Shown here piece after piece: positions 1 through 3,003 of a stretch of 32,000 nucleotides of DNA. Numbering within the stretch: position 1 is the first letter of the stretch; each line of letters starts with the position of its first letter. Source of the stretch: Methanothermobacter thermautotrophicus str. Delta H (GTDB lineage Archaea > Methanobacteriota > Methanobacteria > Methanobacteriales > Methanothermobacteraceae); the NCBI RefSeq assembly GCF_000008645.1, contig NC_000916.1, positions 900,001-932,000 of the forward strand, in the 5' to 3' direction. The translations under genes were made by a program, and so were the position numbers. The notes below the pieces were generated by a model. The model saw nothing but the letters and a program-made list of their open reading frames with translations, did no database searches and was not told the DNA's origin.

Positions 1-983
1 CCGGTAAGGGCGCCACCAGAACCCAGGCAAGGGCCTCGGCCATGATGGAGGCCTTTGAGAGGTATTCAGCAGAAAGAAAGCCCGAAGATGAAACATTCAC
101 AGCTCACCCAGAGGACTGTGACGGCCTTGACCCTGAGTCACTGATACTTCCAGGGTCCACTGATCTGAAATCTGAACTGGAGTGGATTAATGCAGAGAAC
201 CTCACCGGTGATGAGGAGGTCCCGGTACCTGCAAATGCTGTTTTTCATCCATACAACCCTCCGGAAGGCTGCATGAGTCTGTTCCGATCAAACACCAATG
301 GACTTGCATCAGGGAATGCAAGGGAGGAGGCCATATTCCATGGGCTGATGGAGGTGATTGAAAGGGATGCCTGGAGCCTCTTCGAGGCTAGGAGGGGTCC
401 CAAAGTGGAGGTTGACTGCTCAGGGACGGATAATGATATAATATCAGGACTCCTTGAGAAGTTCCATGCCGCTGGTGTGGAGGTGACCCTGGTTGACCTT
501 ACAGCAGACACCGGGGTTGCGACGGTGGCTGCGGTTGCAGATGACACCGTCCTGAGGGATCCGGCCCTCCTCACCATGGGCGTCGGGACCCACCTTGACC
601 CTGAAATTGCGGTTATAAGGGCCCTCACAGAGGTCGCCCAGAGCAGGGCCACCCAGATACATGGAACCCGTGAGGACACCGTCAGGGCCGAGTTCATGAG
701 ACGTGCCGGGTATGAGCGTATGAAGAGACTCAACAGGCACTGGTTCAGTGAACCGGAGGACACGATTACCCTGGATGAGATGGAGGACCTCTCAACAAGG
801 TCATTCAGGGGAGACCTTGAGATAACCCTCAGGAAACTGCGTGAATCCGGTCTAGAGGATGTTTTCTATGTTGACCTCACCCGTGATGTGGGGGTCCCTG
901 TCGTCAGGGTCATAGTTCCGGGCCTTGAGGTCTTCTCTGTTGACCCGGAACGTGTGGGGCGTCGCATCAGGTCCTCCATCTGA
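1..983 (+). CDS. ycaO: YcaO-family ATP-dependent amide-activating enzyme (McrA thioglycine-forming type). It is 5' partial: the reading frame is open to the window edge.
   Basis: The frame is open from position 3 ([21 protein letters not shown]). It carries the YcaO core signature [30 protein letters not shown] and is immediately followed by tfuA. Confidence 0.85.
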
Positions 984-1101
984 GGATTCTGTAAAGATCC
1001 GATTCTGTCAAGTGTTTCCAGATGCAGGAGCTCCTCCTTCTGATATCCGGACCAATTTATCATCTAAAAGATTAATTATCAGCGCCAAGATACCAACCAG
1101 T

Positions 1102-1353
1102 ATGCATGGTAAGAAAATAATCATCTTCACGGGACCATCCCTATCACACACTGAAGCCTCCAGTATCCTTGAAGCTGAGTACAGGCCACCGGTGAGAAGG
1201 GGTGACATTCAGGAGGCCATGAAGGAGAACCCGGACATAATAGGCATAATAGACGGTGTTTTCCACCAGAGCCCTGCTGTTGGTCACAGGGAGATCATTG
1301 ATGCCATCAGGAGGGGTGTGAAGGTGGTTGGAGGGGCCAGCATGGGGCCCTGA
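1102..1353 (+). CDS. tfuA: TfuA-like protein, N-terminal fragment. The frame ends at a TGA directly after a GGGG run.
   Basis: MHGKKIIIFTGPSLSHTEA...PPVRRGDI...IIGIIDGVFHQSPAVGHREIIDAIRRGVKVVGGASMG matches the TfuA pattern (GPSL, PP..GD, IDG.F, GAaSMGALRA). The ORF stops exactly where the conserved SMGALRA motif should continue. Confidence 0.75.
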   Translation: MHGKKIIIFTGPSLSHTEASSILEAEYRPPVRRGDIQEAMKENPDIIGIIDGVFHQSPAVGHREIIDAIRRGVKVVGGASMGP

Positions 1354-1379
1354 GGGCCTCAGAGCTCAGTGAACTTGGA

Positions 1380-1751
1380 ATGGTGGGTGTTGGCCGCATC
1401 TTCAGATCATACCTTGATGGTGAAATCGAATCGGATGATGACGTTGCAGTGGCCTTCAACCCTGACACCCTTGAGCCCCTCTCTGACTCCCTTGTCAGCA
1501 TAGAATTCAACCTTAAAAGAGCCCTCATGAGGGGTGTGATAAGAGAGGATGATTTCAGGGAGCTTATGAATACCGCGAAGAACCTCTTCTACCCCCTCCG
1601 AAATTACAGGAGGATCCTCCATGAAAGCGGGATCCCTGATGATACCAAAGAATCCCTGCGTTCCTTCCTTGAATCAGAGGGGAGGGACCTTAAAAGGGAG
1701 GATGCGCTGGAGGTCATCCGTCATATAAAGAAACTTGCATCTACAGGATAG
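1380..1751 (+). CDS. tfuA: TfuA-like protein, C-terminal fragment. In this frame the homology already begins near 1344.
   Basis: Reading this frame from 1344 gives G-A-L-R-A-S-E-L-S-E-L-G-M-V-G-V-G-R-I-F-R-S-Y-L-D-G-E-I-E-S-D-D-D-V-A-V. That is the conserved TfuA continuation, and it joins the upstream fragment after a 1-nt frame change. Confidence 0.75.
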   Translation: MVGVGRIFRSYLDGEIESDDDVAVAFNPDTLEPLSDSLVSIEFNLKRALMRGVIREDDFRELMNTAKNLFYPLRNYRRILHESGIPDDTKESLRSFLESEGRDLKREDALEVIRHIKKLASTG

Positions 1752-1904
1752 GTTCCAGAAAGTAAGGGATAGAACTACACATAACAGAACCCAAATACGC
1801 AGAGATGAGACTGAACCAAACTAATAACAGAACCATGGACTGCTGCATTCAGACTACAGCGAAATGATGAACCTCACAGGACCTAGAATTATGGATGTGT
1901 TATC

Positions 1905-2921
1905 ATGGATCTTGAATCAAAGGTTGAAAGGGTTAAGACGGCCCTCAGGGGTGAGAGGATCGCCGTTGGATTCTCGGGTGGTGCTGACAGCACAGCCCTT
2001 CTTGATATGGCCGCTGATGTTGCTGATACTGTGGTCGCCTTCACCGTGGATACCGGTGTGATGCCCCGTGGCTTCATTGAGGGGGCTTCAGGCATAGCCC
2101 GGGAGATTGGCGTGGAACATGTTGTCCTGGAGATGAACCTCCTCGAGAATGTGGAATTTGCGAAAAATGCTGCTGACCGGTGCTTTGTGTGTAAGAACAT
2201 CATATACAGTTCCATAATCAGAGAAGCTCATAACCGGGGCCTTGATGTGGTTGCAGACGGCACCACAGCCAGTGACATGTTCGAGGACCGCCCGGGGGTC
2301 CTTGTGAACCACCTTCTTGGAATAAGAACACCCCTCCTGGACGCAGGGATGAAGAGAAGTGATGTGATTGAATACCTCAGGTCCAGGGGGCTTAACTATC
2401 TGGAGGAAACCACCTGCCTTGCAACCAGGATCAGGACAGGTGAAGAAATCACACCCGAGAGGATAAACAGGATCTCCTATGCTGAAAGCCTCATCAGGAG
2501 CGTGTACGGTGATGGGAAGATCCGTGTCCGCCACGAAGGAGAATCCGCCATAATAGAGGTTGATGAACCAGAACGGCTCCTTGAGACACCCATCATAAGG
2601 CACCTGGATGATGAACTGAGGGCCGTTGGATTCAGAAGGGTCCTTCTTGACCTTACAGGGAGAAAGACCCCTGACGAGGCCATGATCTACAGGCCCTGCC
2701 GCGATGCTGAATCAAGGATAATGTTCGAGGTTAAACTGCCCTACAGCATAGACATTGCCAGGACCTGCAGGGAACTCATGGATAGGGGGCCCAGGTGTTC
2801 AGAGAAGATGGGGGTCATCATGCTGGAGGCCGGTGATGGGAATGTCACCATCTTCAGGAACGGGAAGATCGTTGCAAGGAGGGTCAGAGACCAGGAGGAA
2901 GGCAGAGGATGTCATCCTTGA
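1905..2921 (+). CDS. LarE-family PP-loop ATP-dependent sulfurtransferase (COG1606-like) with three Cys placed as in Fe-S-type LarE proteins, plus an extra C-terminal domain of about 85 aa.
   Basis: PP-loop motif VGFSGGADST. CxxC (DRCFVCKNIIYS) plus a third Cys (EETTCLATRIRTGEEIT) sit at the position of the LarE active-site Cys. The tail IRVRHEGESAIIEVDEPERL...LRAVGFRRVLLDLTG is colinear with Lactobacillus LarE as I recall it. Confidence 0.8.
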   Translation: MDLESKVERVKTALRGERIAVGFSGGADSTALLDMAADVADTVVAFTVDTGVMPRGFIEGASGIAREIGVEHVVLEMNLLENVEFAKNAADRCFVCKNIIYSSIIREAHNRGLDVVADGTTASDMFEDRPGVLVNHLLGIRTPLLDAGMKRSDVIEYLRSRGLNYLEETTCLATRIRTGEEITPERINRISYAESLIRSVYGDGKIRVRHEGESAIIEVDEPERLLETPIIRHLDDELRAVGFRRVLLDLTGRKTPDEAMIYRPCRDAESRIMFEVKLPYSIDIARTCRELMDRGPRCSEKMGVIMLEAGDGNVTIFRNGKIVARRVRDQEEGRGCHP

Positions 2922-3003
2922 GGTGATCCCCCACATAATGAGGGAGCCTGTCAGTTAATGGGCCATTGAAAGGATTGCGGAAGAGCTGGAGGCTCCGGTT
3001 GAA

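Follow-up and report, generated by a model that had tools for sequence, protein, structure and literature searches.

A LarE-family enzyme with an added TBP-like domain is encoded beside tfuA in Methanobacteriales and may share its sulfur supply

The gene at positions 1905-2958 (+) of the stretch of Methanothermobacter thermautotrophicus str. Delta H DNA analysed here (NC_000916.1, positions 900,001 to 932,000; hereafter the window, 32,000 nucleotides in all) encodes a LarE-family protein with a TBP-like domain fused to its C terminus, and tfuA lies directly upstream of this gene and its orthologues across the order Methanobacteriales. To judge from its sequence, the product is very probably a [4Fe-4S] enzyme that forms thiocarboxylates. 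As far as we could find, a LarE with an added TBP-like domain, kept beside tfuA across one order, has not been described before. The explanation that we prefer, and to which we give a probability of roughly 40%, is that this [4Fe-4S] LarE shares a transcript with TfuA and that the two are coupled in their supply of sulfur.

Methyl-coenzyme M reductase (MCR) makes nearly all biological methane and carries a thioglycine that YcaO and TfuA introduce. The tfuA-larE pair and the cysteine-bearing domain offer a testable link between the sulfur supply for MCR thioamidation and two matters on the LarE side, namely the donor of the cluster-dependent LarE enzymes and the purpose of the nickel-pincer cofactor, for which we know of no user enzyme in methanogens. 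Methanothermobacter is now genetically tractable. If the link proves non-functional, what is left is a LarE orthologue that carries an unusual additional domain.

LarE core and C-terminal domain

The N-terminal part of the protein (amino acids 1-253; 1905-2663, +) is a LarE-type PP-loop domain. It scored 191.9 bits against TIGR00268 ('LarE', PF06508 cluster 3; cut-off 150) over amino acids 8-253, and a Methanococcus maripaludis relative that is 93% identical to the sequence of PDB entry 8cnz scored 186 bits. In phmmer comparisons, E-values were 6e-31 for mmLarE (8cnz) and 4e-20 for the LarE of Lactiplantibacillus plantarum; TtuA is a weak sequence relative (E 8e-5). The full-length AlphaFold2 (AF2) model, with a predicted local distance difference test score (pLDDT) of 88, matched 8cnz at E 3e-24 with a template modelling (TM) score of 0.88 when normalized to target length, and the next-best fold matches were L. 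plantarum LarE entries.

Conservation was followed in a scan of species-representative genomes that returned 114 relatives, and the invariance and locus counts given below refer to the best 80 of these 114, comprising Methanobacteriales (Methanothermobacter, Methanobacterium, Methanobrevibacter, Methanobinarius and Methanorudis) and one metagenome-assembled genome labelled Methanomicrobiales, in which the gene order is the same as in the Methanobacteriales loci. An initial annotation, made from the letters of the window, had recognized an SGGxDS motif, a CxxC and a third cysteine of the [4Fe-4S] LarE arrangement, and sequence alignment and the fold match to 8cnz bear this out. The PP-loop ATP-binding motif reads SGGADS (amino acids 24-29; 1974-1991, +). 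Two of the three putative cluster ligands, C93 and C96, lie in C93-F-V-C96 (2181-2192, +), which aligns with the CxxC of 8cnz. The third, C171 (codon 2415-2417), occupies the LarE Cys176 position and is followed by T174-R175, the equivalents of L. plantarum S180-R181 (2415-2429, +, together with C171), while R207 and R209 (2523-2531, +) correspond to R212 and R214. All of these positions were invariant in 80/80 loci. In L. plantarum LarE, S180, R212 and R214 are reported to bind the phosphate of pyridinium-3,5-biscarboxylate mononucleotide (P2CMN) (PMC9283937), and their equivalents T174, R207 and R209 are all kept, by alignment, in the same 80 loci.

LarE models and the solved LarE structures reach only residues 8-254 of this protein, leaving about 90 residues over. 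Methanobacteriales homologues are about 350 amino acids long throughout and share a well-conserved C-terminal stretch, which in the window corresponds to amino acids ~258-350 (2676-2958, +; an extra G at ~2901 puts it out of frame, the true stop codon being 2956-2958) and which the initial annotation had not noted as a domain. In its AF2 model (pLDDT 84) the isolated tail is a single TBP-like (helix-grip) domain, and its top 42 Foldseek matches in the PDB were all TBP halves (TM 0.65-0.72, root-mean-square deviation ~2 Å). By profile, every family stayed under threshold for this domain, Pfam TBP (PF00352) reaching E 0.02-0.09 and 13-15.5 bits against a required 22.9. The dipeptide P264-C265 (2694-2699, +) was invariant in 80/80 loci, and C265, the 'PC' cysteine, is the only invariant cysteine of the domain family, as it is in 17 free-standing homologues.

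A profile built on the domain matched just 75 of 1.84 billion representative proteins. Besides the fusions to LarE, these were free-standing proteins some 95 amino acids long and proteins in which the domain follows a PF04060 Fe-S domain; no MoeB/ThiF protein was recovered. Together they make up an undescribed family (proteins P0245-P0314, alignment A3) of ~95-residue single TBP-like domains that share one invariant 'PC' cysteine. TBP domains have been reported as fusions to some MoeB/ThiF adenylating enzymes and as free-standing proteins in Euryarchaeota (Brindefalk et al. 2013, PMC3597702). The domain in the window resembles these in being a single TBP-like unit that is either C-terminal to an adenylating enzyme or free-standing at ~95 amino acids, but its relatives are the 'PC'-motif free-standing proteins and the PF04060-fused proteins. 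No description of a TBP-like domain fused to LarE was found in the literature. Free-standing members of the family occur in Methanocella, Methanosalsum and Aenigmatarchaeota, where they carry the JGI label 'ArsR family metal-binding transcriptional regulator', and some weakly match NCBIfam PRK13795, a PAPS-reductase-like PP-loop protein, at profile positions ~480-600. Two neighbouring proteins were considered as carriers of the domain and rejected, namely a PF04060 Fe-S protein encoded upstream in Methanobacterium (hhalign probability 0.7%) and a PUA/PAPS-reductase protein near archaeal LarE (0.5%).

The closest known systems are those with a [4Fe-4S] LarE, represented by mmLarE (PDB 8cnz/8cp3/8cp4) and T. 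maritima LarE, with which the window protein shares SGGxDS, CxxC plus the third cysteine, the phosphate-binding residues and the fold. It differs from the mmLarE type in having ~90 extra C-terminal residues that are TBP-like with an invariant cysteine, and in that its gene stands behind tfuA rather than by larB/larC or, as in M. maripaludis, by radical-SAM, aminotransferase and NadA genes. The sacrificial LarE of L. plantarum (PDB 5udq and others) belongs to the same family and fold, with the S180, R212 and R214 equivalents and a counterpart of C171 in the Cys176 region; unlike the window protein, it has no CxxC, donates the sulfur of its own cysteine, lacks the extra domain and is encoded in a larA-E operon (PMC9283937). 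Among the relatives of mmLarE, a Methanobacterium member ranked just behind Methanocaldococcus, and no short LarE paralogue from Methanobacteriales was found among the matches listed, so that the protein looks like the order's sole LarE. The retention of every substrate-phosphate residue and the lack of a second LarE of the order among those matches argue that the protein is the ordinary LarE.

Conservation of the tfuA-larE junction

The window opens within ycaO, whose 3' part (1-983, +) lies at the edge, with the 5' end beyond it. The readable fragment (3-983) holds the C-terminal 326 codons, and despite the truncation it scored 507 bits (cut-off 365) against TIGR03266, the 'McrA-glycine thioamidation protein' model, and 321 bits against Pfam YcaO; the full-length gene encodes 394 amino acids in a 98%-identical contig (L001). 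Downstream, tfuA (1102-1751, +) is written as two open reading frames (ORFs), 1102-1353 and 1380-1751, through a 1-nucleotide deletion in a G-run at ~1344. The fragments cover positions 1-78 and 90-210 of the NF033432 profile with 128 and 137 bits, under the cut-off of 235; with the base restored, the gene encodes 216 amino acids and scores 302 bits, and the only solved TfuA structure, 6xp8, is of a close relative. The spacer between tfuA and the LarE-like gene (1752-1904) is exactly the 153 nucleotides given by the initial annotation, which had also placed the LarE-like gene on the same strand, and a direct reading found no T-run of five or more in it. By its ycaO and tfuA, the window belongs with the McrA-glycine type of the YcaO-TfuA-ThiS system, which as described has no LarE-type enzyme. 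Reported neighbours of ycaO/tfuA are thiF, sufS, moaD, moaE and moeB, and the window's LarE-like gene is not among them (Nayak et al., PMC5589413).

Among the relatives, all loci that had upstream sequence (78/78) have tfuA directly before the LarE-like gene and in the same orientation, so that the linkage extends well beyond one strain or genus. The spacer had a median length of 73.5 nucleotides (range 0-483), with some species at 0-13 nucleotides, and a run of five T was missing from it in 62/78. Taken from the sequence, tfuA and the LarE-like gene are probably one transcript. The longest spacer, 483 nucleotides in Methanobrevibacter cuticularis (L031), contains regularly spaced TATA-like motifs and may have gained a tandem repeat by insertion.

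The position of ycaO is much less stable. It was adjacent in only ~20 loci, and in 51 it was missing from at least 3 kb upstream, where HD, TFIIE-alpha and F420-ligase genes stand instead. The initial annotation had treated ycaO, tfuA and the LarE-like gene as one linked set; across the order the tfuA half of that proposal holds and the ycaO half does not. Gene junctions were compared by counting as intact those in which both genes were present with a gap of at most 500 nucleotides. By this measure the tfuA-larE junction was intact in 78/78, as were carB-carA, a real operon (49/49), and CBS-Usp (71/71). The Usp-amidohydrolase junction was intact in 32/66, amidohydrolase-carB in 32/61 and ycaO-tfuA, the junction of established partners, in 19/71. 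The conserved partner of the LarE-like gene is tfuA, not ycaO. In the window, 118 nucleotides (984-1101) lie between ycaO and tfuA, whereas in Methanosarcina their stop and start codons overlap (PMC5589413) and in most Methanobacterium genomes the two genes are separated altogether.

The same pairing was looked for in 84 LarE loci from other lineages, 4 archaeal (M. maripaludis and three with a short LarE) and 80 metagenomic. Neither tfuA nor ycaO was found at any of them (0/4 and 0/80), and the extra C-terminal domain was likewise found in 0/84, LarE being otherwise a single-domain protein of ~250-290 amino acids. Pairing with tfuA and fusion to the extra domain thus go together in this one lineage.

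The initial annotation had reported no larB or larC in the window, and we reached the same result with scans of the other long ORFs for Pfam AIRC and Ni_insertion, a LarC motif scan and tblastn, the last using verified LarB and LarC seeds from the metagenomic loci. In 87 Methanobacteriales loci, which together span 1.52 Mb, neither gene was found within 10 kb of the LarE-like gene. Elsewhere, larB and/or larC were present in 18/80 metagenomic LarE loci and nearby in 0/4 archaeal ones; over LarE genes as a whole, about half are without an adjacent larC (PMC13329287). Adjacency to larB/larC is common in the LarE family, not universal. Controls and seeds came from compact operons with overlapping genes, larB-larE-larC(-NicO) and larB-larC-larE (L152:9184-12990 and L144:7958-10795). 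In M. maripaludis C5 (L085:9021-11947), the start of larE overlaps the stop of a radical-SAM/BATS gene and a class-V aminotransferase gene follows, with NadA, two ThiF-like genes, MoaE and FdhD nearby; larB, larC, tfuA and ycaO are all missing within 10 kb.

A proposed shared sulfur supply and competing explanations

In the mechanism that we propose, the PP-loop domain would adenylate a carboxylate of a phosphate-bearing substrate, most likely P2CMN, and sulfide carried by the free iron of a cluster whose ligands are C93, C96 and C171 would displace adenosine monophosphate to leave a thiocarboxylate. TfuA would hydrolyse a thiocarboxylated ThiS-type carrier to provide YcaO with sulfide, and would also reload the LarE cluster, a shared sulfur supply then lying behind the gene pairing. 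The TBP-like domain, with its invariant C265, may act as a docking or relay element. We favour a shared supply because a [4Fe-4S] LarE requires an external sulfur donor, Na2S being unused in vitro (PMC9283937), because the thiocarboxylate of TtuB feeds the TtuA cluster, according to PMC9283937, and because TfuA is presented in PMC13063428, which cites Liu et al. 2021, as a hydrolase that frees the sulfide of thiocarboxylated carriers of the ThiS type. In the light of PMC13063428, the statement of the initial annotation that the sulfur donor of archaeal thioamidation is not settled is partly out of date. The proposed template for a TfuA-LarE relation is TtuA-TtuB, in which, as summarized in PMC9283937, a PP-loop enzyme with a three-cysteine [4Fe-4S] cluster takes sulfur on its free iron from a thiocarboxylated carrier; TtuA differs in acting on tRNA, in taking its sulfur straight from TtuB without an intervening hydrolase of the TfuA type, and in the weakness of its similarity. 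That the LarE-like enzyme is functionally coupled to TfuA at all is close to an even bet, leaning slightly to the doubtful side.

Several observations weigh against such coupling. The downstream hyp140, CBS, Usp, amidohydrolase and carBA genes are also widely kept, so that the whole block is syntenic, and the upstream contexts are only two in kind, which implies a single rearrangement and few independent events; with block synteny and two contexts, 78 species are not 78 independent observations. The tfuA-larE pair was never seen relocated as a unit and stays with the downstream hyp140-CBS-Usp genes, and the evidence for linkage is confined to one order. LarE is not generally dependent on TfuA, as the M. 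maripaludis larE, which is not near tfuA, and Methanocaldococcus, which bears LarE and has no TfuA (PMC5589413), both indicate. The cysteines of the C-terminal domain are absent from the diverged family members P0246, P0251, P0252 and P0270, and the free-standing homologues are not near tfuA, ycaO or sulfur genes: in Methanocella the gene stands beside a NifX-like gene and Frh, and in Methanosalsum beside NikR. Finally, the assumed substrate would require larB and larC in these genomes; both families are presumably present in Methanothermobacter.

Nearly as likely as the preferred reading, therefore, is that the protein is an ordinary LarE with no tie to TfuA, which makes the bis-thiocarboxylate precursor of the nickel-pincer with larB and larC located elsewhere, the adjacency to tfuA being that of an inherited block. 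In its favour, no LarE hallmark or substrate-phosphate residue varies, the flanking hyp140, CBS, Usp and carBA genes are about equally widely conserved, only one class of upstream rearrangement was seen, and none of the 84 LarE loci outside the order has the tfuA link. Separation from larB and larC also fits, since archaeal larE is often away from them (4/4 loci) and about half of all LarE genes have no larC beside them. In our literature search, nothing relevant was found tying LarC to Methanothermobacter or the nickel-pincer to Methanobacteri*. What speaks for a tie to TfuA is that the tfuA-larE junction is unbroken in 78 species while two other junctions in this block are interrupted in roughly half of the loci, that spacers are short with both genes on one strand, and that the linkage coincides with a lineage-specific gain of a domain. 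The comparison by junction gives back part of the weight that block-wide synteny took from the 78/78 adjacency.

The initial annotation had suggested a three-component sulfur relay for MCR maturation or a second thio-modification. Spelled out, the LarE-like protein would be the third component of McrA thioamidation and would turn ATP and sulfide into a thiocarboxylate, formed on a carrier or a small molecule, for TfuA to hydrolyse beside YcaO, in place of the ThiF/ThiS route in this order or for a second thio-modification. This would suit the chemistry, in that LarE yields thiocarboxylates and TfuA consumes them (PMC13524815, PMC13063428), and the order-wide, operon-like adjacency to tfuA, the invariant cysteine on the added domain and the lack of larB/larC within 10 kb in 87 loci are all compatible with it. 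We nonetheless regard it as improbable. The invariant nucleotide-phosphate residues suit P2CMN and not a protein C terminus, the protein is apparently the order's only LarE orthologue, ycaO is lost from the cluster in 51 loci, and other methanogens thioamidate McrA with no LarE neighbour; a literature link between LarE or other PP-loop enzymes and TfuA or YcaO was not found. A wider version, in which TfuA and the LarE-TBP enzyme form one sulfur-trafficking machine in Methanobacteriales that could run in either direction, is speculative and rather unlikely. In one direction the LarE-type enzyme would use ATP to make a thiocarboxylate that TfuA hydrolyses for McrA thioglycine, replacing the ThiF/ThiS arm; in the other, TfuA would deliver sulfide more generally, loading [4Fe-4S] PP-loop sulfur insertases as well. 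The invariant cysteine of the TBP-like domain would be the relay point in both.

A different kind of explanation is that the frameshifts in the record are real, tfuA and the LarE-like gene being decaying pseudogenes or genes expressed via frameshifting. Both genes as given carry 1-nucleotide indels, which the initial annotation had not noted, and no other record of the exact 338-residue LarE-like product was found. Alignment of the window with three independent 98%-identical contigs (L001-L003) located single-base changes in the length of mononucleotide runs in four genes of the same 13 kb: G5 to G4 at 1344 in tfuA, G to GG at 2901 in the LarE-like gene, one at 9899 that splits carB into ORFs 7405-9891 and 9893-10639, and one at 10630 that alters the 3' end of carA. 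As written, the LarE-like ORF stops at 2921 after 338 amino acids; the corrected gene ends at 2958 with 350, which agrees with the gene end given by the initial annotation. The homopolymer indels are probably assembly or sequencing errors and the genes not pseudogenes, because essential carAB is equally hit, 78 other species are intact and the truncated product is unrecorded elsewhere. Damage to carB and carA within 13 kb would be implausible in a free-living autotroph, the three independent assemblies are intact, tfuA is unbroken in 78/78 loci of other species, and the corrected proteins are identical to those of L001 at 214/216 (TfuA) and 344/350 (LarE-like) positions, all of which makes real frameshifts very unlikely.

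Thiolation of a nucleoside, with the TBP-like domain binding RNA or DNA and the core acting like TtuA, NcsA or archaeal ThiI, is highly improbable: the TBP-like domains of TBP, RNase HIII and DNA glycosylases do bind nucleic acids (PMC3597702), and TtuA is weakly related (E 8e-5), but such platform domains mediate protein contacts too (PMC3597702), the catalytic domain is much nearer to LarE than to any tRNA enzyme, and the LarE substrate-phosphate residues are retained.

Neighbouring genes

Immediately downstream of the LarE-like gene and convergent on it is a string of genes for Usp, CBS and hyp140 proteins (3004-4726, -). The hyp140 protein (141 amino acids) has no family match, yet its gene is conserved beside the LarE-like gene in 75/80 loci. 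On the other side, just upstream of the window start, a gene for a 193-residue membrane protein (L001:7304-7885) shows faint similarity to Peptidase_M50 and to the daptide HExxH protease. It stands immediately before ycaO in 17/17 loci and is gone wherever ycaO has moved, and may be a ycaO-linked gene.

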